A stretch of DNA of 64,000 bases from Escherichia coli (GCF_011045215.1 NZ_CP049201.1), one strand, 5' to 3'; positions 2,191 through 20,885 are shown, counted from the stretch's first letter. Translations and numbers: made by a program. The notes: generated by a model not told the origin, from the letters alone.

Positions 2191-3237
2191 TTAAAAATCT
2201 TTCGTTATTTCTCTGACCGTCTGATTAAAACGTTCCTCTTCCAGTTCCACGCCAATCGCCCTGCGTCCCAGCAACAGTGCCGCTTTTATCGTGGAACCTG
2301 ACCCCATAAAAAAATCTGCGACCAAATCGCCTGGACGGCTGCTGGCAGTAATTATCTGACGCAACATATCCGCCGGTTTTTCACAGGGATGTTTGCCCGG
2401 ATAATACTGCACGGGCTTGTGCGTCCAGACATCCGTATAAGGAACGACAGCCGATACGGAAAAATAACGCCGCAGTGATTTGTATTCCTCCAGCAGGCTG
2501 ACATATTGCCGGTTCAGTTCGCTGTATGTGCTGACCAGCTGGTGATGTGGCTGCTCCAGTTCACCGCGCTGGTGTTTTTCTGCCGCCACACGTGCAAACA
2601 GCGCCTGCAGTTTACTGTAATCGGCCTCATTCGGTAACTGCCACTGACTGGTACCAAACCAGTGCGAAACCATGTTTTTCTTTCCGGTGGCTTCAGCTAT
2701 CTGTTTTGACGTTATCCCCAGTGATTCACGCGCATCACGGAAGTAAGAAATCAGCGGGGCCATCACGTGCTGTTTAAGCTCGCGCCCCTTTGCCGCATAG
2801 CCGTCATTTTTTGGCTGGTATGGCCCCTGATAATGTTCAGCAAACAGAATGCGCTCTGTTGCCGGGAAATACGCCCGCAGGCTTTCCTTGTTGCACCCGT
2901 TCCAGCGTCCGGACGGCTTCGCCCAGATAATGTGGTTCAGCACATTAAAGCGCTCACGCATCATGATTTCGGTGTCAGATGCCAGGCGATGACCACAGAA
3001 CAGGTAAAGACTTCCGGCAGGCTTCAGTACCCGCCAGAACTGCGCCAGACATCGGTCCAGCCATTGCAGGTAATCATCGTCGCCCTTCCACTGGTTATCC
3101 CAGCCCTCGGGCTTCACTTTAAAGTATGGCGGGTCTGTGACTATCAGATCGACAGAGTTTTCCGGTAATGTCCGGATAAATTCCAGGCAATCCGCGTTGA
3201 TTAACTCACAACTGGATATTTTTACAGTATTAGCCAT
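2191..3237 (-). CDS. DNA methyltransferase (N6-adenine or N4-cytosine type), orphan
   Basis: 348 aa with DPPY motif near N-terminus (LIVTDPPYF) and FxGxG AdoMet motif near C-terminus (FFMGSGST); no nuclease recognised alongside. Confidence 0.85.
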   Translation of the reverse strand: MANTVKISSCELINADCLEFIRTLPENSVDLIVTDPPYFKVKPEGWDNQWKGDDDYLQWLDRCLAQFWRVLKPAGSLYLFCGHRLASDTEIMMRERFNVLNHIIWAKPSGRWNGCNKESLRAYFPATERILFAEHYQGPYQPKNDGYAAKGRELKQHVMAPLISYFRDARESLGITSKQIAEATGKKNMVSHWFGTSQWQLPNEADYSKLQALFARVAAEKHQRGELEQPHHQLVSTYSELNRQYVSLLEEYKSLRRYFSVSAVVPYTDVWTHKPVQYYPGKHPCEKPADMLRQIITASSRPGDLVADFFMGSGSTIKAALLLGRRAIGVELEEERFNQTVREITKDF

Positions 3238-3387
3238 AGATCAATAAGCACTTCTCTGATAGGCTCATACCGCTTTTGCGCAAAGCAGATGGGCCTGAGG
3301 TTTGCTTGTGACCCCAACGCATGAGCAGATGGCTGGCAGGTGCCGCTAACACCCACCAGCCGCCCATTACCACAAATTAAAAAGCCT

Positions 3388-3585
3388 TCACTGCGAAAGG
3401 CGTCTGTAACAACCGAACTGATAATCTGCCAGACCCGCCATAACAAGCTGGGTCAGTATTAACTGGCAGCGTTCGCGTGAAAGGTAAGTATTCTGCGCAA
3501 TTTCCCCGACGGTCGCCGGTTCGGTGACGCTTAATTCATTAAACACCACTCTGGCGGTTTTGGTCATATCCTGCTGTTTTAGCAT
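3388..3585 (-). CDS. small putative DNA-binding protein (winged-helix-like)
   Basis: Track ORF 3388..3807 trimmed to internal ATG 3583-3585 (AGGGA upstream); the N-terminal extension looks non-coding; residues TVGEIAQNTYLSRERCQLILTQL resemble an HTH recognition helix. Confidence 0.35.
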   Translation of the reverse strand: MLKQQDMTKTARVVFNELSVTEPATVGEIAQNTYLSRERCQLILTQLVMAGLADYQFGCYRRLSQ

Positions 3586-3902
3586 GTCTTTTTCCCTATT
3601 CCGGTTAACGTGACATACCAATAACTCTTGTCTGAAAAGCCAGCAAGCTGAAAAACCGGTATTCGTAACCACCAGCGCGTTTAACGTACTGCACCACTTT
3701 TCGGGCACAAAAAACCCGCCTAACGGCGAGCTTAAGCTGTGTAGCGAAGTAACCACTCTTAACACACTAAGCGAAAAAATGCGGACCGCGTTAGTGATTT
3801 TTAGCAAGTTTTGCTTTATTTTTCCTACGTACAGTAAAAATAAGAAATCAATTCCAGCCAGGCTGGCTGAGTTAACACAGGTCTTAGAATGAGGGAACTT
3901 CT

Positions 3903-4913
3903 TTGTACGAAATACATTACGACGTTGAGTCTGAACAGCAAGCTTTTGAATTACTTGAACGTTACCTAAACGGACAAGCTTTACCCGAAAAAATTAGTTT
4001 CAATGGTTGGCCAAGTCTAACCATCAGGTTGACTGGTGAAAAATTCAACAAATCACTCACACCTTCAGTTATGAAAGGATTTGTTGAAATGCAATCGCAA
4101 CTCAATAAGTCTTATGCGCTAGCAAAGTTCGGAACTCCTGATGTCCGCAGGCTAACAAAAGAAGAACTTGATGCTTTAGAAATTGAAGTTACAGTAGAGC
4201 AAGGTTCATCTCTTGTAGAGATTAACATTGATGGCTTCCTAAGCAAGCTTACGCACGAACTGGTAGGGAAAATGAACGCCACAGAGATTGTATTTACGGT
4301 TCTCGGTGCTGCCGTTATATGGGGCGGTGTAACCGTCTTCAAACGCTATCTGGATAACCGTAAAGATACTCGGTTGGCTGAAATTGCTAAAGAAGGCGAC
4401 AAAGAACACCTACGCGCAATGCAAGTGATGACACAGGAGGAAACAAAACGCCTCCAAATCATCTCAGAAATGGTGGCTAAAAAACCTCTACTCGACAATA
4501 TGGATCGAATGTCTTATGACGCTAAAACCACCATGGTTAAATCTTTCGTGCGTTCAGATTCAGCAGAAATTGACGGTGTCACAATAGATTCAGAAACGGC
4601 AAAAGAGCTAGTAACAAATGCTCGTCGACGCTCAGTTGAAATGAGAATAGACGGTATATACCGTATCGAAGAAGTGAATAATACCGACCCCGAAAGCTTC
4701 AAAGTTAAGGTTCGAAAGGTCGATTCTGATCAACGTTTGACCTGCGTTGTTCAGGATATATTCCTTGATGAATCAGGGAACAAAGAAGCCTTACAGCGAG
4801 CTGAATGGGAAAGAAAGCCTGTGCATTTAAGCATCAATGCCAAACACATTGATGGAGATATCAAGTCCGCCGTAATTTTACATGTGAAAGATGTTGAAGA
4901 TAAGCCCGAGTAA
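3903..4913 (+). CDS. hypothetical protein with one central hydrophobic segment; AT-rich cargo gene, family not recognised
   Basis: 1011-nt ORF opposite to the late genes; TTG start 6 nt after GAGGGA (in-frame TAG at 3885-3887 excludes an upstream ATG); 36 G+C in first 100 nt by hand count; hydrophobic stretch EIVFTVLGAAVIWGGVTVF. Confidence 0.7.
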   Translation: MYEIHYDVESEQQAFELLERYLNGQALPEKISFNGWPSLTIRLTGEKFNKSLTPSVMKGFVEMQSQLNKSYALAKFGTPDVRRLTKEELDALEIEVTVEQGSSLVEINIDGFLSKLTHELVGKMNATEIVFTVLGAAVIWGGVTVFKRYLDNRKDTRLAEIAKEGDKEHLRAMQVMTQEETKRLQIISEMVAKKPLLDNMDRMSYDAKTTMVKSFVRSDSAEIDGVTIDSETAKELVTNARRRSVEMRIDGIYRIEEVNNTDPESFKVKVRKVDSDQRLTCVVQDIFLDESGNKEALQRAEWERKPVHLSINAKHIDGDIKSAVILHVKDVEDKPE

Positions 4914-5682: not shown

Positions 5683-6732
5683 TTACCCGAGCACGCCGGT
5701 TGCAAAGGCGTGATCAAGAAAACGAAAAATTAAATCAACCTGGGAACCATGCTTTTCTTCGAACGCCAGCGGATCCGCATGAAGTTCGTTGTGATGTTCC
5801 CGGCATAACGGTAGCGTGAAAATATCGTGGGATTTTGTTCCCATTCCGCCCTGACCATGACCAATCAGGTGATGGGGATCGTCGGCTGGCTTACCACAGC
5901 ACGCACACGGCTGTGTCTTTACCCAGCGTGTATATTTCTCATTTATCCAACGGCGACGTTTAGGTCGCTTCATGAAAGATTCCGGAGACTCCGGATCTAC
6001 GGCAATGCTGACCACCGTCTTTTCCTGTGGTGCGTTCTGTTGCTGGTGGGCGTGAGGTGGTAGCGCAATATTTTTTGTGCGCTGCTTCAGTATGCTGGTA
6101 GCTGTCTGCTCTCCCGGTACGATGTCGCTTTCGCGGTATACTGAGTGGATTTTTTCACCCGGAAGCTTCAGGATTCGACGCGCCATATTTTCGGTCATGG
6201 CATCCACTACATCATTTACAGCAGCCCAGCAGTACAGTTCAGCCAGCGATAATTCCCGCTCCTGTGTACCGCTTATTGCGTGACGTATGACGTCAATCAT
6301 CCAGGCTGTCAGATTTTGTTGAGCAAGCTGCCCGAGTGATTCGGAGGTCTGGTCACGCAGCTGGTTGTCGCAGTGCCAGCACAACACCATCGCGCCGGTG
6401 CCGTAACGATGTATGACGGTTTCACTGTGATGATAGTCACCATGAGGCCACTGGCAGGATTTGACATGACGCAACAGCCAGTCAGACAGTGCGCCAGCGC
6501 CGCCAGCAGCACGAATCACCCGCTCATCGCTGAAAAATGGCAGTAATGATTTATCTTCCGCCAGCGGCTGGCGAACAGCAGGAACAACTCCGAACGGCAG
6601 ACCGCGCATGCTTTTCGGTTCCGGTTCCACCAGCACTCGAGGGTTATGAAATACCTGCATGGATTCACGACCAGGCTTAAGGACCACCAGCCCGAGTTCC
6701 GGTACCGGAACAGGTCGAAGTAATACCCGCAC
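5683..6732 (-). CDS. DUF968/YdfU-like protein with C-terminal HNH-type motif
   Basis: 349 aa, same length as Qin YdfU; C-terminal CACCGKPADDPHHLIGHGQGGMGTKSHDIFTLPLCREHHNELH. Confidence 0.75.
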   Translation of the reverse strand: MRVLLRPVPVPELGLVVLKPGRESMQVFHNPRVLVEPEPKSMRGLPFGVVPAVRQPLAEDKSLLPFFSDERVIRAAGGAGALSDWLLRHVKSCQWPHGDYHHSETVIHRYGTGAMVLCWHCDNQLRDQTSESLGQLAQQNLTAWMIDVIRHAISGTQERELSLAELYCWAAVNDVVDAMTENMARRILKLPGEKIHSVYRESDIVPGEQTATSILKQRTKNIALPPHAHQQQNAPQEKTVVSIAVDPESPESFMKRPKRRRWINEKYTRWVKTQPCACCGKPADDPHHLIGHGQGGMGTKSHDIFTLPLCREHHNELHADPLAFEEKHGSQVDLIFRFLDHAFATGVLG

Positions 6733-7492: not shown

Positions 7493-7648
7493 TTACTCCT
7501 CAGATTCGTAAGCTGTGAAGACAGCGACCTCCGTCTGGCCGGTTCGGATTCGTACCTCGCAGAGGTCTTTCCTCATTACCAGTGCCGTCACTATGACGGT
7601 TAAACAGATGACGATCAGGGCGATTAACATCGCCTTTTGCTGCTTCAT
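7493..7648 (-). CDS. hok: Hok/Gef-family type I toxin
   Basis: MKQQKAMLIALIVICLTVIVTALVMRKDLCEVRIRTGQTEVAVFTAYESEE is near-identical to remembered HokD; AAGGAG 7 nt upstream. Confidence 0.85.
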   Translation of the reverse strand: MKQQKAMLIALIVICLTVIVTALVMRKDLCEVRIRTGQTEVAVFTAYESEE

Positions 7649-7705
7649 AGCCTGCTTCTCCTTGCCTTTCGGCACGTAAGAGGCTAACCTACGTTTGTGT
7701 AGCAT
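7493..7705 (-). CDS. mok-like overlapping reading frame
   Basis: In-frame N-terminal extension (MLHKRRLASYVPKGKEKQA) upstream of the hok ATG, as in hok/mok/sok loci. Confidence 0.45.
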   Translation of the reverse strand: MLHKRRLASYVPKGKEKQAMKQQKAMLIALIVICLTVIVTALVMRKDLCEVRIRTGQTEVAVFTAYESEE

Positions 7706-8102
7706 AGATTGGGCCTCAGATTAATGTTAAGCGTCTTGCCGGACGCGTAATGTTAACTGGGGCTTTTCTCTGTCTGCCTTACAGTGGCATGCCCGAGGCA
7801 GACAGCCTCAGGCACCCGCAACAATCTTACCGACACCGATAAGAAAACGCTATTTTTTATTGCCAGAACCTTCTGCCCAGGCTAATGTATCCGCGTCAGA
7901 ACGGCGCAATGCGCTCGCCTGAGATACGTTTACTTGTCATTGGTGGCAACAGATAACGGCAATTGTTGTTTCTGTTTGTTTCCTTCAAAAACCCCGGACC
8001 ATCAATCCGGGGTTTTTGTTTGTTATCCCCAGCGGCAAATCGAATACACCATCAGCGCCACCGCCATCGCAATTCCTGCCGTTGTGAATGCTTCAGGCCA
8101 GG

Positions 8103-9418: not shown

Positions 9419-9756
9419 TGCATCACCTCACGATTCCTCAACCAGATACAAACCGGTCCATCCTCGGTGTCATGAATGGAGCCAATAAACCAGCCCTCAC
9501 CCTCTGGTCGTTCAGGTTCCCATGCGGAAATATCGGGACCATCTGCATCCGGGTTAAAATCATCTTCATCCATACTGCGAATAGTCCACTGAAGATTATT
9601 TACCTTCATCCAGGCGTTAAATTCTTCCGTCGAAATATACTCCCGGCCATCACAAAATTTTTCATATTCAGGATGCGTCCAGCAGCCATATTCATCACGT
9701 TCTACCGGCAGTTCTTTGATTTCAATCAAAACATTAACTCCATTAAGATAATGCAA
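9415..9756 (-). CDS. hypothetical phage protein (acidic)
   Basis: 113-aa ORF in operon register. Confidence 0.5.
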   Translation of the reverse strand: MHYLNGVNVLIEIKELPVERDEYGCWTHPEYEKFCDGREYISTEEFNAWMKVNNLQWTIRSMDEDDFNPDADGPDISAWEPERPEGEGWFIGSIHDTEDGPVCIWLRNREVMQ

Positions 9757-9925
9757 AACAAATTAACCACACCACGACAACCGATGCTATTAACACCCTG
9801 ATTGCAAACAGCGGGCTGATATGTCGAAAAGGATTTTCCCAGATAATAAAAGCCGCTGCCAGAAATGCACTGATAAGTAAAACAATAACAAACAGCTCAA
9901 TTTTGATTATCCAGAACATATTCAC
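9743..9925 (-). CDS. small hydrophobic membrane protein
   Basis: 60-aa ORF, almost entirely hydrophobic. Confidence 0.35.
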   Translation of the reverse strand: MNMFWIIKIELFVIVLLISAFLAAAFIIWENPFRHISPLFAIRVLIASVVVVWLICFALS

Positions 9926-10212
9926 TGCATCGCCTTCTGTAAAATAACCGCATGCCCCAGCTTCTCCGCCAGCGCCAGTTCTGCCTTAGCACCCGCCGAC
10001 CGCTGCCAGCCATTCAGCATGTAAATCGCATCCACGCAACGTATCATCGCCATGCAGATATCCATGTACTGCGACTGAGTCAGTCCGTCCGGAAGTACTG
10101 CCGGGTTTAAGACGGTATGCCCTTCCCGTTTCAGTTCCTCTTCCGCTTTGTGAAACGCCTCACGGTTGAAGTTTTCATGGCCAGTCATCGGCCCTGCGAC
10201 ATAAACCTTCAT
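9922..10212 (-). CDS. DUF4406-like protein (nucleoside 2-deoxyribosyltransferase-like fold)
   Basis: N-terminus MKVYVAGPMTG is characteristic of this family. Confidence 0.55.
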   Translation of the reverse strand: MKVYVAGPMTGHENFNREAFHKAEEELKREGHTVLNPAVLPDGLTQSQYMDICMAMIRCVDAIYMLNGWQRSAGAKAELALAEKLGHAVILQKAMQ

Positions 10213-10658
10213 ATCGTTTTTACTGTCCCTTTATTGTCCCTGTAAAACATCAAAACCCGCTGCATAACATCGCTATTCCGGCACTCACGACAGATTATGT
10301 TCTGACGCCTGTCATAGCGGCGTATTTCTCCATCTGGTAATGAATAAATCAGGTCTGGGTCGCTCTTTTTCTTCGCTCTGTTTTTCTTCACTCCCCCTTT
10401 CGCGATCTTTTGGTGAGCCCTTTCCCAGTCCCTGTGCGCCTGCTCAGACGGAAATACCCCGTAGTCAGAGTTGTACACCTCACCGCTGGCAGCAAGCTCT
10501 CTGGATAAGCGACCGGTAGTGACTCTGCTGACACCCGTTTTATCTGCCAACTGCTGATGTGTTTCTCGCCCACTCTGGCGTACGAGCTCCACAATGCGCG
10601 CCTTCACTTCTTCCCGTTGTTCGTGTGTGAAAGGTTTTGCCATAAGCGCCTCCGGCAA
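10209..10658 (-). CDS. hypothetical phage protein, possible DNA-binding
   Basis: 149-aa ORF, basic, overlaps neighbours by 4 nt. Confidence 0.5.
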   Translation of the reverse strand: MPEALMAKPFTHEQREEVKARIVELVRQSGRETHQQLADKTGVSRVTTGRLSRELAASGEVYNSDYGVFPSEQAHRDWERAHQKIAKGGVKKNRAKKKSDPDLIYSLPDGEIRRYDRRQNIICRECRNSDVMQRVLMFYRDNKGTVKTI

Positions 10659-11429
10659 TCACTTTTCTGATGCAACACGGCGGGAAGAATCAGTCATCTG
10701 CCGGAAAATATCCCGGTGCTTGTTCAGCTCCCGCAGCGCAGCGCAGACACGTTCCCACTTCCGGATATGACTTTTTGCCCGGCGCAGTTCACGGTTTGCC
10801 ATATGTAGCGATGGCAGCATTACATAGTCGGTATGTTTTTCGGTGAACAATGGCAGTGACTGCACAATATCCGCCACCGTTTCTGTTTTAATTTCTTCCT
10901 GTGTTGCAACCTCCTGTACTGGTAACGCAACCCCCGCTGGCTGAGGAAAGGCTTTACCATCAGTTTCCGCTACCGATGCGGCTTTCAGTTCTGCTGGTAA
11001 ATTCTCGCCTGGCATGCAGTAACGAAATTTACCGTTCTGATTAACGCGTGCCAGTCGCCCTGTTGAGGTTACTACCGCCAGCGTGGAAGCAACCTTGCGA
11101 ATGCTGACACCGAACTTACCCGCCAGTTCCTCACACGTTTTAGCCCCCTCCTGGCCGATAAACTCAATCATCATGTCAGCGGTAACTTTTTGTTCGCCCA
11201 CCCCGGTTAGCACATCCGGTGCTTCAGATTGTACTGGCTGCTCTTCGGTTACCCCGGATTCACCTTCGCCAGCCAGAAACCAGGTGTGGCCAGTTTTATC
11301 AACGACGCCATTTCTTTTGAGTTCCCACAGCTCGTTCAGAACTTCTTCACGACTGATTTCAAGTCGTGCGACCAGTTCCACCGACGTGGCTTTTCCCATT
11401 GCTTTCAGTGCATCAAAAACGGTCTCCAT
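10659..11429 (-). CDS. hypothetical phage protein (DUF1627-like)
   Basis: 256-aa ORF following the helicase loader. Confidence 0.5.
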
Positions 11430-11468: not shown

Positions 11469-12197
11469 CTAACCAACATTTGAACGCCAGCTCTCCCAGT
11501 TAAAATTCACCCAGCGACCACCGTTCATGGTCATGCGGTCCATCACGCGCTCGCCAAGCAGCGTATTCATTGCCGTATGGTTCAGGTTCGTCAGCATCCC
11601 GACGCTGTGCATCGAGGCTGTTCTGCGATCGACTATCTGGTTCAGTGTGACCTGTTCGTTACGCGTATCCCGCTGCATACCAATTTCATCCAGGACAAGC
11701 AGGTCAACTTCACACAACCCCTGCAAAAATTTTTCGCCCGAGTTTTTGTTGTCGTAGTTGCCGTGTAACGCCAGCATCACATCCGCCACCGTCACCACAA
11801 TCACGCTGCGACCTTTCGCCAGAAGATGGTTGCCAATGGCTGCTGCCAGATGATTCTTTCCGGTACCCGGCTTACCGCTGAACACGAAATTTGTGCATCC
11901 GGTCATCATTTCTTCCGCGATGGATTTTGCCTGGCTCAGCGCGTGGCGTTGGCCATCGTTCTTCACCTGGTAATTCGCAAACGAACACTTCTGGTGCAAC
12001 AGTTGGATACCGGAACGCTTCATAATTTTCTCCACCCGGATCTGGCGATTCTGGCGGTTAATTTCCTCACTACGCTTTCGCCCTTCTGCAAGCTGCCACT
12101 CTCGCCACTCGTCCACTGTCCGGTACGGCGCGGTTACATGCTGCGGGGCCAGCTTACGGATACGCTCAAGAACACCACCTGCCGCAATATTTTTCAT
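11469..12197 (-). CDS. DnaC/IstB-like replicative helicase loader
   Basis: Walker A FSGKPGTGKNHLAAAIG and Walker B LLVLDEIG; position equivalent to lambda P / Rac YdaV. Confidence 0.85.
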   Translation of the reverse strand: MKNIAAGGVLERIRKLAPQHVTAPYRTVDEWREWQLAEGRKRSEEINRQNRQIRVEKIMKRSGIQLLHQKCSFANYQVKNDGQRHALSQAKSIAEEMMTGCTNFVFSGKPGTGKNHLAAAIGNHLLAKGRSVIVVTVADVMLALHGNYDNKNSGEKFLQGLCEVDLLVLDEIGMQRDTRNEQVTLNQIVDRRTASMHSVGMLTNLNHTAMNTLLGERVMDRMTMNGGRWVNFNWESWRSNVG

Positions 12198-12203
12198 AAC
12201 CCG

Positions 12204-13313
12204 TTACCCCCTGAATCCCGGCGGAATTTCGGTATCCGGTTCAGAAATATGATTCACACAACGCTGGTTGTTCGTGCCGCTTACCGGGAGCAACCAGGGG
12301 TTTTCAAAATTCCGGTCCGGTCCAAAAAACGTCGTCGCTCGCTGAACAAATTCCGTTCCCGCTTTCCCGGTCGCCGCCAGGTATCTCGCGTAACGCCTCA
12401 CACCATCCAGCATGGTCTCTGGTGGCACCCCCTCGCGCAATCTGGCCTTCCAGGCACTGAATGCGGATTTCTTCGGGTTTGCCCCGGCACGCAACGGGTA
12501 TTCCCGCCAGACCTGTTCGAACACATCCGGATAATCCACTCGTCCCACAGGCCGCCCGGTGTTTTCCGGGACTACCCGATCGGCTTCCCGCTGAATGGCG
12601 GAATCGGCTTCAGGCTGCTGCAGTTGGTGTGATTGCTCCGACCCTGCGGTCATCACCTGCTGCACAGCGCCCGAATCGGTTTTCAGCGCATACGCCGAAT
12701 CGGCTTCCGGTGTCGTGCCTGCTGGCTGACCAGAATTTACGGTCTGAACATCCCCTGCCTGGTTCGTGGTGTTTTTTTCGCCATGAGCTATAGTGTTTTT
12801 GTCCTGTTCTTTCTCCTGCTCCTGTTCCTGTTCTTGGCTTCGAAGCCCCTTAAAAGCCCCTTCGAAGCCCCTTACCGAATTTCGGCTATTATTCCGCCTC
12901 ACATCCAGATGGAAATCCGTTTTATATCTGTCGTAAAACGCTGACAGAAAAGCGTTTTCAGGTAATGATGCATACTCATTCCTGACACCTGCACAACGGT
13001 TATCGCCAGGCTTCAACGTTTCCCCAACCTGCCAGGCTGCCATTTCATGGACCCAGACCATCTCGGCATCATGGTCATAGCTACAAAAACCAGCTTCAAC
13101 AGCCCTTTTAAGCCCCTTTGAAGCCCCTTCCAGACCAAGCCCGGTTTCATGAGCAAGGTATAAAACTGGCAGGTAATACAAACCCAGCATATTTGCGTGA
13201 GGGGATGTCATCAGGTAAAAAGCAACAACTTGCGCTTCTGCACCCGCCTTTCTAAGTTCTCTCCCCGTTTCTCCCAGCCAGAATCGCGGAGAAACTTTTG
13301 CGTAATCACGCAT
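12204..13313 (-). CDS. replication initiator (O-like / YdaU-like) with internal iterons
   Basis: Track ORF trimmed to ATG 13311-13313 preceded by GAGG; immediately upstream of the helicase loader; contains iteron-like repeats and an acidic QEQEQEQEKEQ linker. Confidence 0.65.
   Translation of the reverse strand: MRDYAKVSPRFWLGETGRELRKAGAEAQVVAFYLMTSPHANMLGLYYLPVLYLAHETGLGLEGASKGLKRAVEAGFCSYDHDAEMVWVHEMAAWQVGETLKPGDNRCAGVRNEYASLPENAFLSAFYDRYKTDFHLDVRRNNSRNSVRGFEGAFKGLRSQEQEQEQEKEQDKNTIAHGEKNTTNQAGDVQTVNSGQPAGTTPEADSAYALKTDSGAVQQVMTAGSEQSHQLQQPEADSAIQREADRVVPENTGRPVGRVDYPDVFEQVWREYPLRAGANPKKSAFSAWKARLREGVPPETMLDGVRRYARYLAATGKAGTEFVQRATTFFGPDRNFENPWLLPVSGTNNQRCVNHISEPDTEIPPGFRG
12843..12873. 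repeat. iteron-like direct repeats, three AAGCCCCTT copies at 11-bp period
   Basis: Copies at 12843-12851, 12854-12862, 12865-12873 inside the O-like gene. Confidence 0.6.
13101..13129. repeat. second iteron cluster (AAGCCCCTT x2 plus a degenerate copy)
   Basis: AGCCCTTTT at 13101-13109, then AAGCCCCTT at 13110-13118 and 13121-13129. Confidence 0.5.
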
Positions 13314-13530
13314 GGCTACCTCATCTGGTGCCGAACCTTCCTCCGGATATAATCTGTGGTTCCCAATCGACAGAACCAGAGGAGGTTCGACATGTATTTT
13401 TTGAAAAGCCTTTATCAGGCTCATGTATTAAATGTTGCAGCAACAAACCGCTGGTGTAACAGCCCCGAAATGCTCCCGGATTACAGAGCCTGGCTGCGCG
13501 CCGAAACATACCTTCGTCTCGACATATTGA

Positions 13531-18449: not shown

Positions 18450-20885
18450 ATGAGCACTGATAAAGAAGAATTTGCATTATATTGTGAAGCAAAAAATGAC
18501 AAAGTCAGAAAACGCCTTGGAATTAAAGGTGGTTTTTACTGGACTACAGCAAAAAAATTATCTGTTGCCATCTCCCGCTGCATTACCGCAATGGATGACA
18601 ACGATTATGATGAAGACGACTTTAAAAAACCCGTCCGCGTCCATTTACCCGTTGTGAATGACCTTCCACCTGAAGGCGTGTTTGATACTGAATTCTGTAA
18701 CCGTTACGAAAAAGGCGGGGAAGATGGCATCACAATGGTATTTATCGCGCCCTCACCCTCTGCGCAGGACAAACCAGCCAACATTGACAATACCAACGTC
18801 AACGGCGAAGACATGACTGAGATTGAGGAGAACATGCTCCTGCCGGTTTCAGGTCAGATTCTGCCTGTTCGATGGCTGGCACAGCACGGCAGCAAAAAAC
18901 CGATCACACACGTTTCGCGGGACGAACTGCGCGCATTACATAACGCACAGGATGAAAAACTTCCCGCCGTTACCGCGCTGGCTATCTCAAATAAAGCAGC
19001 GCAACTCGAACCGCTGGAGATTCGCGATCTCCACAAACTGGTGCGAGACACTGACAAAGTTTTCCCCGCCCCCGTAAATTCGGACCTGGGACTGATAACC
19101 TCTTTTATCGAAGCATACCTAGACGCCGACTACACCGATCGCGGTCTGCTGACAAAAGAGTGGATGAAAGGAAATCGTGTTTCGCGTATCACCCGTACGG
19201 CTTCCGGTGCAAATGCCGGTGGCGGGAACAAAACCGATCGCAATCCGAATTTAGTACACACCTTCGATACGCTGGATGTGGAGATTGCAACAGCCACACT
19301 TCCGATGGATTTTAATATTTATGAAATTCCGGGCAGCGTTTATCGTCGCGCAAAAGAAATCGTCCTGAAAAGAGAAAGTCCGTTCAAAGAATGGTCCGCA
19401 GCACTTCGCGCAACCCCGGGTATTCTGGATTATTCCCGCGCCGCTATTTTTGCACTTATCCGGAGCGCTCACCCTGAGTTTTATCACTACCCGGGACGCC
19501 TTCAGGGGTATATCAACGCCCACTTAACGGAGACTGATCACGAGAACCCCAGCAAGGAAACTCTCACTGCTGCACGACATACACCGGAAAAAGACATCCT
19601 GGAAGAAGTTAACCGCGAACTGGCTGCTGAACGCGAAACAGAAGAAGAAAAAAATAATGAGGAAAAATCACAACCGTCTGACGCAATGGCAGATGAACAG
19701 GCAACGACTGAAGCAATGGGACAGGATACAACTGAATATCGCCAGGACACACAATCGCTGGATACTCAGGCACAGATAAATCCGGTTAATCAGGTAAAAG
19801 TTACCGCTGACGAAGTAAACAAAATTATGCAGGCAGCCAATATCAACCAGCCTGATGCCGACAAAATACTGGCAGTCCATCGCGGTGAATTCGTTGACGG
19901 AATTAGCGACCCGAATGATCCGAAATGGGTTAAGGGGATTGAAACCCGCGATTCTGTGAACCAGAACCAGCCCGAATCGGAACAAAACAGCCAAAATGCG
20001 TTACAAAACGAGCCAGAAACGAAACAGCCTGAACCAGAAGAGCAACAAGAACCGGAAAAAGTCTGCACCGCCTGCGGTCAGACCGGCGGCGGCAACTGTC
20101 CTGACTGTGGCGCGGTGATGGGCGACGCAACATACCAGGAAACATTCGATGAAAAAAATCAGGCTGAAGTTCAGGAAGATGATCCGGAGGAAATGGAAGG
20201 CGCTGAACATCCGAACAATGAGAATGCTGGTAACGATCAGTATCACGCCAGCGATAGTGAAACTGGCGAGGCGACAGATCCCTTAATTAATGTGAACGGT
20301 CATCACGAAATCACATCCACCAGCAGTACGTGTGACCATCTAATGATCGACCTTGAAACCATGGGAAAAAATCCTGATGCCCCGATTATCTCAATAGGTG
20401 CAATATTTTTCGATCCGCAAACCGGAGATATGGGACCGGAATTTAGTAAGACTATAGATCTGGAAACAGCTGGCGGAGTCATTGATCGTGACACCATTAA
20501 ATGGTGGCTTAAGCAATCACGCGAGGCGCAATCTGCCATTCTGACCGATGAAATCCCGTTAGATGATGCACTGTTGCAATTGCGGGAATTTATCGACGAA
20601 AACTCCGGCGAATTTTTTGTTCGTGTCTGGGGAAATGGAGCCAGCTTCGACAACGTAATTTTACGCCGTTCATATGAACGGCAGGGGATCCCCTGCCCGT
20701 GGCGTTACTACAACGATCGCGATGTACGCACAATTCTTGAACTGGGAAAAGCCATAGACTTCGATGCCAGAACGGCTATTCCATTCGAAGGCGTACCCCA
20801 CAATGCGCTGGACGATGCCCGTCACCAGGCAAAACAAGTTTCAGCTATCTGGCAAAACCTGATCCCGAGTCAGGCTGATTTTTAA
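18450..20885 (+). CDS. large phage exonuclease-like protein (C-terminal DnaQ/DEDDh-like 3'-5' exonuclease, acidic linker, zinc ribbon)
   Basis: 811 aa; C-terminus LMIDLETMG...WGNGASFDN...HNALDDARH fits DEDDh motifs; CTACGQTGGGNCPDCG zinc ribbon; E/Q-rich low-complexity centre. Confidence 0.7.
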   Translation: MSTDKEEFALYCEAKNDKVRKRLGIKGGFYWTTAKKLSVAISRCITAMDDNDYDEDDFKKPVRVHLPVVNDLPPEGVFDTEFCNRYEKGGEDGITMVFIAPSPSAQDKPANIDNTNVNGEDMTEIEENMLLPVSGQILPVRWLAQHGSKKPITHVSRDELRALHNAQDEKLPAVTALAISNKAAQLEPLEIRDLHKLVRDTDKVFPAPVNSDLGLITSFIEAYLDADYTDRGLLTKEWMKGNRVSRITRTASGANAGGGNKTDRNPNLVHTFDTLDVEIATATLPMDFNIYEIPGSVYRRAKEIVLKRESPFKEWSAALRATPGILDYSRAAIFALIRSAHPEFYHYPGRLQGYINAHLTETDHENPSKETLTAARHTPEKDILEEVNRELAAERETEEEKNNEEKSQPSDAMADEQATTEAMGQDTTEYRQDTQSLDTQAQINPVNQVKVTADEVNKIMQAANINQPDADKILAVHRGEFVDGISDPNDPKWVKGIETRDSVNQNQPESEQNSQNALQNEPETKQPEPEEQQEPEKVCTACGQTGGGNCPDCGAVMGDATYQETFDEKNQAEVQEDDPEEMEGAEHPNNENAGNDQYHASDSETGEATDPLINVNGHHEITSTSSTCDHLMIDLETMGKNPDAPIISIGAIFFDPQTGDMGPEFSKTIDLETAGGVIDRDTIKWWLKQSREAQSAILTDEIPLDDALLQLREFIDENSGEFFVRVWGNGASFDNVILRRSYERQGIPCPWRYYNDRDVRTILELGKAIDFDARTAIPFEGVPHNALDDARHQAKQVSAIWQNLIPSQADF

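Follow-up and report, generated by a model that had tools for sequence, protein, structure and literature searches.

A DUF4406 protein of a Rac-like Escherichia coli prophage is a minimal relative of nucleoside 2-deoxyribosyltransferases and a candidate deoxynucleotide N-glycosidase

The gene described here lies in a 64,000-nucleotide stretch of Escherichia coli DNA (GCF_011045215.1, NZ_CP049201.1), referred to below as the window, and encodes a 96-residue protein that is an ordinary allele of the known and abundant phage family DUF4406. We propose that this protein acts as a Glu78-dependent N-glycosidase on 2'-deoxynucleoside 5'-monophosphates (dNMPs) during phage replication, a reading to which we assign a probability of about 0.45. 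For the window alone, the gene is unremarkable: a routine allele from a family already catalogued, found in the prophages of a sizeable fraction of E. coli genomes. DUF4406 as a whole comprises more than 11,000 clusters (50% identity) and ranks among the accessory genes met most often in phage replication modules. The residue pattern—Tyr and Glu kept, Ser at the phosphate position, no conserved acid, and no C-terminal lid—yields a testable dNMP N-glycosidase hypothesis, to which links with pyrophosphohydrolases and DNA methyltransferases lend support, and it warns against copying the label 'nucleoside 2-deoxyribosyltransferase' (NDT). The residue-level case against that label, the glycosidase hypothesis, and the two genomic associations are new here.

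The open reading frame was translated to give MKVYVAGPMTGHENFNREAFHKAEEELKREGHTVLNPAVLPDGLTQSQYMDICMAMIRCVDAIYMLNGWQRSAGAKAELALAEKLGHAVILQKAMQ, with the N-terminus MKVYVAGPMTG. The product matches Pfam DUF4406 (PF14359) with an E-value of 1.2e-37 and a score of 128.6 bits (cut-off 22), residues 1–90 aligning with positions 1–90 of the 91-position profile, and it matches PHROG 355 with an E-value of 4.7e-45; PADLOC and NCBIfam scans of the protein gave no match. An E. coli 'DUF4406 domain-containing protein' on deposit is 99% identical, and an exhaustive HMMER scan recovered 11,575 clusters (50% identity) matching at E<=1e-3. The family motifs Y-[IV]-A-G-P-M-[TS]-G, F-N-R, L-N-P-A and G-W-x-x-S-x-G-A-x-x-E are all found in the protein, their conservation having been gauged in sets of 49, 107 and 266 relatives, and about 95–125 residues is the normal length in the family. 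Set against 45 different alleles of related prophages, the gene gives dN/dS values with a median of 0.10 that reach at most 0.15; it is under strong purifying selection and is a genuine conserved gene, well beyond a chance reading frame. The initial annotation had described a DUF4406-like protein of 96 residues beginning MKVYVAGPMTG, and the reading frame and the Pfam match bear this out; its caution about function, with a nucleotide-salvage or nucleotide-modifying role given as a possibility, is apt as well.

A lambdoid prophage occupies the leftmost 22 kb of the window and adjoins ompW-yciC-yciB of a chromosome of E. coli type. Many E. coli genomes match the junction at 98.9% identity, and an integrase is present at the ompW-side integration site in 1,708 genomes; the prophage is Rac-like and inserted beside ompW, with the DUF4406 gene in its early-right operon. 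The minus-strand order is cro/cII-like, O-like, DnaC-like, DUF1627/YdaW, DUF977/LygF and then DUF4406, followed by a short hydrophobic orf, a PHROG-1372 protein, an Ea22-like protein and hok/mok-sok, and further along by DUF968, RusA, Q, and then an N6/N4 DNA methylase, holin and lysozyme (Table 1). Known members of the family include rac19 of Escherichia phage Rac-SA53 (ALP46915.1) and E. coli entries; the deposited prophage proteins are 88–99% identical and occupy the same place after ydaW (DUF1627) and lygF (DUF977), and the gene order in Rac-SA53 is identical (ydaU, ydaV, ydaW, lygF, rac19, ead). An ATGA overlap between the DUF4406 start and the stop of the DUF977 gene suggests that the two are translationally coupled within one operon. 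A divergent promoter-like pair near 14.8 kb is the sole candidate fitting a PR/PRM arrangement, and no terminator-like sites were found by scanning the minus strand from about 14.8 kb to the DUF4406 gene, with counts in the promoter and terminator scan overall not above those of shuffles. Among 80 related IMG/VR loci the gene upstream of DUF4406 is of two types (DUF977-like in 54), and the gene downstream belongs to 16 unrelated clusters, a variety that marks DUF4406 as a cassette within the mosaic, accessory part of the early-right operon.

Table 1. Coordinates of the features discussed; positions are those of the window unless another locus is named.
Feature	Position	Strand	Remarks
DUF4406 protein coding sequence	9922–10212	minus	96 aa; ATG 10210–10212, stop TGA 9922–9924 (span includes the stop codon)
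ATGA overlap of DUF4406 start and upstream DUF977 stop	10209–10212	minus	from coordinates and sequence
Tyr4 codon TAT	10201–10203	minus	hhalign; DNPH1 Y24, L. leichmannii NDT Y7, DmtZ Y6
Gly-rich loop codons, G7-P-M-T-G11	10180–10194	minus	after strand 1; counterpart of DNPH1 G-S-I-R-G
Cys53 codon TGC	10054–10056	minus	third-triad position; DNPH1 D80, L. leichmannii NDT D72, DmtZ N77
Motif codons, S72-A-G-A-K-A-E78	9979–9999	minus	Ser72 (DNPH1 S98, L. leichmannii NDT D92, DmtZ T97), Gly74, Glu78 (DNPH1 E104, L. leichmannii NDT E98, DmtZ E103)
O-like gene	12204–13424	minus
DnaC-like gene	11469–12197	minus
DUF1627/YdaW gene	10659–11429	minus
DUF977 (LygF/Ren-like) gene	10209–10658	minus	Pfam DUF977 match
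Hydrophobic orf	9743–9925	minus	58–60 aa
hok/mok-type toxin orf	7493–7705	minus	70 aa; module with sok 7493–7817
sok antitoxin RNA	7643–7817	minus	Rfam, full-length match, 109 bits
DUF968 gene	5683–6732	minus	3 kb downstream of DUF4406
N6/N4 DNA methyltransferase gene	2191–3237	minus	7 kb from DUF4406
tRNA-like match	1902–1972	minus	Rfam, 36.4 bits, E 2e-4
RecE-like exonuclease gene	18450–20885	plus	811 aa
DUF4406 with PF18909 or MazG-like gene, L189/L190	4001–4719
DUF4406 with PF18909 or MazG-like gene, L177	2986–3698
DUF4406 with PF18909 or MazG-like gene, L002	2974–4973
DUF4406 with adjacent methyltransferase, L085	2408–3309
DUF4406 with adjacent methyltransferase, L087	1556–3528
DUF4406 with adjacent methyltransferase, L088	2354–3297
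DUF4406 with adjacent methyltransferase, L184	2492–3015
DUF4406 with adjacent methyltransferase, L185	2492–3588
DUF968 gene directly after DUF4406, Vibrio phage H20 (L084)	3273–4277

An AlphaFold2 model with 107 homologues as input was confident (pLDDT 94.7, pTM 0.87) and has the four-strand topology beta-alpha-beta-alpha-beta-alpha-beta, a flavodoxin-like alpha/beta fold with a parallel sheet as in the superfamily. When the model was compared with the PDB using Foldseek, NDTs ranked top (2A0K at an E-value of 9e-5, TM 0.76 on the query), followed by the CMP N-glycosidases BcmB and MilB and then by DNPH1, with a query-normalised TM of about 0.76 for these groups. The family profile matched the T. 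brucei NDT among PDB sequences with an E-value of 1.3e-4 and with the Glu aligned; the single protein sequence returned only noise from the PDB, and a profile is needed. The protein is a minimal four-strand member of the N-(deoxy)ribosyltransferase superfamily, and the NDT-like fold ascribed to it by the initial annotation holds up in both the model and the Foldseek matches. The model also resembles Pseudomonas aeruginosa PA1492 (PDB 1T1J), a structural-genomics protein of 125 residues that is 20% identical and belongs to a separate Pfam family (DUF1937); its function is likewise uncharacterised, and therefore no function can be transferred from it. Full-text literature searches for DUF4406, DUF1937 and PA1492 returned annotation mentions and no functional study.

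The catalytic triad of the superfamily consists of Tyr, Asp (or Asn) and Glu (PMC12884076). Residues were mapped by hhalign profile alignments to human DNPH1, L. leichmannii NDT and phage DmtZ, which are of low statistical weight (E-values 0.02–0.11), together with the predicted model; the three alignments concur on all four mapped residues. The numbering of the DNPH1 and L. leichmannii NDT sequences used fits the residues given in PMC10603095 and in the NDT literature. Among 266 relatives, Tyr4 is Tyr in 91% and Phe in 8%, the loop is conserved at G7 (99%), P8 (94%), T/S10 (96%) and G11 (97%), and the second motif at S72 (100%), G74 (98%) and E78 (99%); S72, G74, A75 and E78 are invariant or near-invariant throughout the sets of relatives compared. 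Glu78, whose site also aligns in PDB chains 2A0K, 6QAI, 4JEN and 1T1J, is the predicted covalent nucleophile. The third triad residue, Asp or Asn, is absent, all three alignments placing Cys53 there, nine residues before strand 3 and in a register that agrees with DNPH1, NDT and DmtZ. Position 53 is Cys in 82% and Asp in 7% of the 266 relatives, and A, S, T, N or V in more distant lineages; the third residue thus appears, from the alignments, to be no feature of the DUF4406 family. The initial annotation had named conservation of the catalytic Glu as a check and loss of active-site residues as the opposite outcome: the Glu passes that check and the Tyr is likewise retained, but the third position has diverged and varies within the family.

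From phages of Proteobacteria to those of Actinobacteria, five polar residues of the predicted pocket (N16, N36, Y49, S72 and E78) show little or no variation. The protein has no equivalent of the C-terminal third of the canonical enzymes: the NDT alignment stops near NDT residue 111, beyond which the protein has no residues, and it ends before the counterparts of NDT Asn123/Tyr157, DNPH1 Ser128' and DmtZ Trp124', which in those enzymes are partner-subunit residues given by the C-terminal segment. In NDT structures D92 binds the 5'-OH of the sugar, and N123 and Y157 belong to the C-terminal region. The pocket may be incomplete, or another acid may serve (the near-invariant Tyr49, or Asn16/Asn36), or the substrate may be one with a good leaving group.

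The triad Tyr orients the nucleophile and disfavours ribo-substrates (PMC12884076, PMC10603095), and the reversal obtained with MilB F17Y links the strand-1 Tyr to deoxyribose preference (PMC10603095); by analogy, Tyr rather than Phe at position 4 would go with a preference for 2'-deoxyribose. DNPH1 binds the 5'-phosphate of its ligand through Ser98 (rat Ser87), a Ser from the adjoining subunit, and main-chain amides of Gly89 and the Gly-rich loop (PMC10603095, PMC3834327), the loop amides making this contact in the rat enzyme (PMC3834327); MilB retains the equivalent phosphate-binding Ser97, with E103 as nucleophile (PMC10603095). In NDTs an Asp and an Asn stabilise the 5'-OH, and small uncharged residues are found there in hydrolases (PMC12884076). 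Asp stands at −6 from the Glu in the nucleoside-specific NDTs of T. brucei, L. mexicana and L. leichmannii; Ser72 stands at −6 from Glu78, which is the spacing of DNPH1 S98/E104 and MilB S97/E103, and it aligns with DNPH1 S98 and with the Ser of the BcmB motif 'SPGTHIE'. Gly74 is the counterpart of DNPH1 Gly89. The protein therefore carries the two elements of a (d)NMP-glycosidase phosphate pocket, Ser or Thr at −6 and a Gly-rich loop. It lacks a second phosphate ligand (Ser128' in DNPH1, Arg23 in MilB), having Thr10 at the Arg position and no C-terminal helix; Arg17, which is 91% conserved, could replace it. The invariant Ser72, with Gly74 and the G-P-M-[TS]-G loop, favours a phosphorylated ligand, and these residues argue for a ligand that carries a 5'-phosphate.

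We suggest that the DUF4406 gene would be transcribed together with the replication genes of the early-right operon, and that Glu78, oriented by Tyr4, would attack C1' of a dNMP to form a covalent 2-deoxyribosyl-5-phosphate-enzyme intermediate, the 5'-phosphate being held by the G7-P-M-T-G11 loop together with Ser72 and Gly74. Resolution of the intermediate by water, or perhaps by another base, would then release the free base and deoxyribose 5-phosphate, and the result would be a reshaping or cleaning of the dNMP pool while phage DNA replicates. From the family, the fold and the observed Tyr, Ser and Glu we infer that the protein is an enzyme, that it acts on dNMPs and that it serves the phage in this way. 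Against a dNMP N-glycosidase stand Cys53 at the third triad position, with no conserved acid across the family, and the missing C-terminal lid; the pyrophosphohydrolase link described below, moreover, comes from other lineages and not from this prophage.

Comparison with characterised enzymes shows both shared and divergent features. DNPH1/Rcl and MilB/BcmB share with the DUF4406 protein the fold, the Tyr (Phe in MilB), the Gly-rich loop, and the Ser-x5-Glu spacing, whereas the DNPH1 acid Asp80 is replaced by Cys53, the DNPH1 partner-subunit helix with S128' has no counterpart, and the MilB phosphate-binding Arg23 (DNPH1 R30) is replaced by Thr10; the DUF4406 protein is also 30–60 residues shorter than these enzymes, with identities of 17–22%. 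DmtZ, a dAMP hydrolase/transferase, is a phage enzyme of the NDT superfamily with the Tyr6/Glu103 pair and an uncharged residue (Thr) at −6; as with some DUF4406 genes, it is coupled, genetically or physically, to a dNTP pyrophosphohydrolase. It differs in having 161 residues, five strands and Asn77 in its triad, and in belonging to phages with 2-aminoadenine (Z) DNA; when compared with Pfam it is not a member of DUF4406, and no PurZ-type gene was seen in the part of the prophage that was read. The NDTs of PF05014 (L. leichmannii, T. brucei and C. thermalis) are the best Foldseek matches, and their nucleophile Glu and N-terminal Tyr align, but Asp92 is replaced by Ser72, Asp72 by Cys53, and the Asn123/Tyr157 region is absent.

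All 17 of the phage records inspected have DUF4406 in an early, replication or recombination module, with neighbours that include DNA polymerase, processivity factor, helicase, DnaQ-like exonuclease, RusA and Gam-like genes. In a Bradyrhizobium prophage and a related metagenomic phage (L177), a gene of PF18909 (dATP/dGTP diphosphohydrolase) overlaps the DUF4406 stop, and a cluster in Mycobacterium phage Courthouse comprises gp159 (DUF4406), gp161 (MazG/PRA-PH-like) and gp163 (PF18909-like). Two BFVD entries, A0A6J5LQ71 and A0A6J5S4N9 (216 and 462 aa), align over the full length of the DUF4406 model at TM 0.86–0.90, implying DUF4406-PF18909 fusions; both are named 'dATP/dGTP diphosphohydrolase N-terminal domain-containing protein', and their link to PF18909 is by name only. 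The DmtZ-DutZ pair has been shown experimentally to convert dATP to dAMP and then to adenine, and by analogy the association of DUF4406 with pyrophosphohydrolases would parallel this logic.

A DNA methyltransferase gene is directly adjacent to DUF4406 in five of 16 other phage records (a raw count): MT-A70 in Aeromonas 4_D05, C5 in Pseudomonas D14E and, as a fragment, in Pseudomonas H66, and N6_N4 in Mycobacterium Brujita and Gordonia GrandSlam. The stop and start codons of the two neighbours often overlap, and a published map of a Brachyspira prophage places an N6-methylase immediately before the DUF4406 gene. Methyltransferases are also the commonest Pfam family within ±3 genes (6 hits, a raw count, across 21 lineages at 70% identity), in statistics that are indicative only, the related-locus searches having given mostly close relatives. 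A more specific form of the glycosidase proposal would make DUF4406 proteins 'epigenetic nucleotide sanitisers', DNPH1-like glycosidases that destroy modified dNMPs (5-methyl-dCMP, N6-methyl-dAMP) derived from methylated DNA and so would keep them from salvage into replicating phage DNA. If true, this would account for the adjacency and overlap with methyltransferases of three unrelated classes and for the pairing of other members with dNTP pyrophosphohydrolases, but we regard it as a long shot. The N6/N4 DNA methyltransferase gene of the window itself is flanked by the Q antiterminator region and the lysis genes.

Several other readings were weighed. The protein might be a genuine NDT (EC 2.4.2.6) that swaps bases between deoxynucleosides for salvage, as the PHROG 355 label 'nucleoside 2-deoxyribosyltransferase' at the E-value given above, the same label on many phage homologues in GenBank and PHROG, the NDTs at the head of the Foldseek matches, and the transferase activity of some phage NDTs of PF05014 would all have it. 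Its PF05014 score, however, is 17.8 bits against a cut-off of 28.8, the triad Asp is a Cys, and the labels are unverified and inconsistent. GenBank names of homologues include 'nucleoside 2-deoxyribosyltransferase', 'MazG-like pyrophosphatase', 'deoxycytidylate deaminase', 'hydrolase' and 'hypothetical protein' (KU052037, NC_023690, NC_048100, NC_026598, MK967392, KY658675 and others), none of them with an assay as its basis. Because the protein falls below the PF05014 threshold, has an invariant Ser72 in place of the 5'-OH-binding Asp92 of the L. leichmannii enzyme, and stops before counterparts of Asn123 and Tyr157, a true NDT ranks last among the enzymatic readings and is quite improbable in itself; the label is probably wrong for DUF4406. 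As to the varied names, the actinophage homologues called 'MazG-like pyrophosphatase' or 'deoxycytidylate deaminase' were considered as fusions and ruled out, being stand-alone proteins of about 125 residues. Informative fusions were likewise sought among close relatives and rejected: 49 proteins of 150–358 residues have uninformative, unannotated extensions at the N- or C-terminus, apart from one HTH and one DUF551, and some of these are probably start-codon miscalls.

The lack of a conserved general acid is what would be expected with NAD+-type substrates, whose leaving group needs none, and it leaves room for a substrate with a good leaving group or for a sponge that only binds. An anti-defence or host-interaction factor, either a TIR/SLOG-like glycosidase acting on NAD+, NMN or an ADP-ribose-derived signal or a non-catalytic nucleotide sponge, would also suit the mosaic cassette position in an accessory region with its 16 downstream gene clusters in 80 loci, the proximity of known counter-defence genes (Gam-like inhibitors, orphan methyltransferases), a size about that of known sponges, and structural similarity to TIR/SLOG proteins. 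Sequence similarity, however, is to NDT-type families only and never to TIR, Tyr4 and Ser72 suit a deoxyribose 5'-phosphate ligand, PADLOC gives no match, the family is absent from the accessory-gene and anti-defence screens that were checked, and the dNTP pyrophosphohydrolase links point to dNMP metabolism; we consider such a factor unlikely. A decayed remnant, or a purely structural protein with no ligand role, would explain 96 residues where characterised relatives have 130–160, with one triad residue and the C-terminal elements missing. The strong purifying selection, the near-invariance of the five pocket residues across phages of Proteobacteria and Actinobacteria, and the normal family length speak against it, and we hold it to be very improbable. 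The dNMP N-glycosidase reading is the one that we favour.

Other features of the prophage were noted. The orf that starts at or just past the DUF4406 stop codon encodes a strongly hydrophobic product, gave no match in Pfam, PHROG or NCBIfam, and is common to only three of the 80 related loci. The hok/mok-type toxin orf and the sok antitoxin RNA make up a type I toxin-antitoxin module within the early-right region. The tRNA-like match, between the methylase and holin genes, was not called by ARAGORN and may be a degenerate phage tRNA. The window has a DUF968 gene, and Vibrio phage H20 encodes such a protein, which has a weak HNH-like match, right after DUF4406. On the plus strand, the RecE-like protein joins an exodeoxyribonuclease VIII region to a C-terminal Rv2179c-like 3'-5' exoribonuclease domain.
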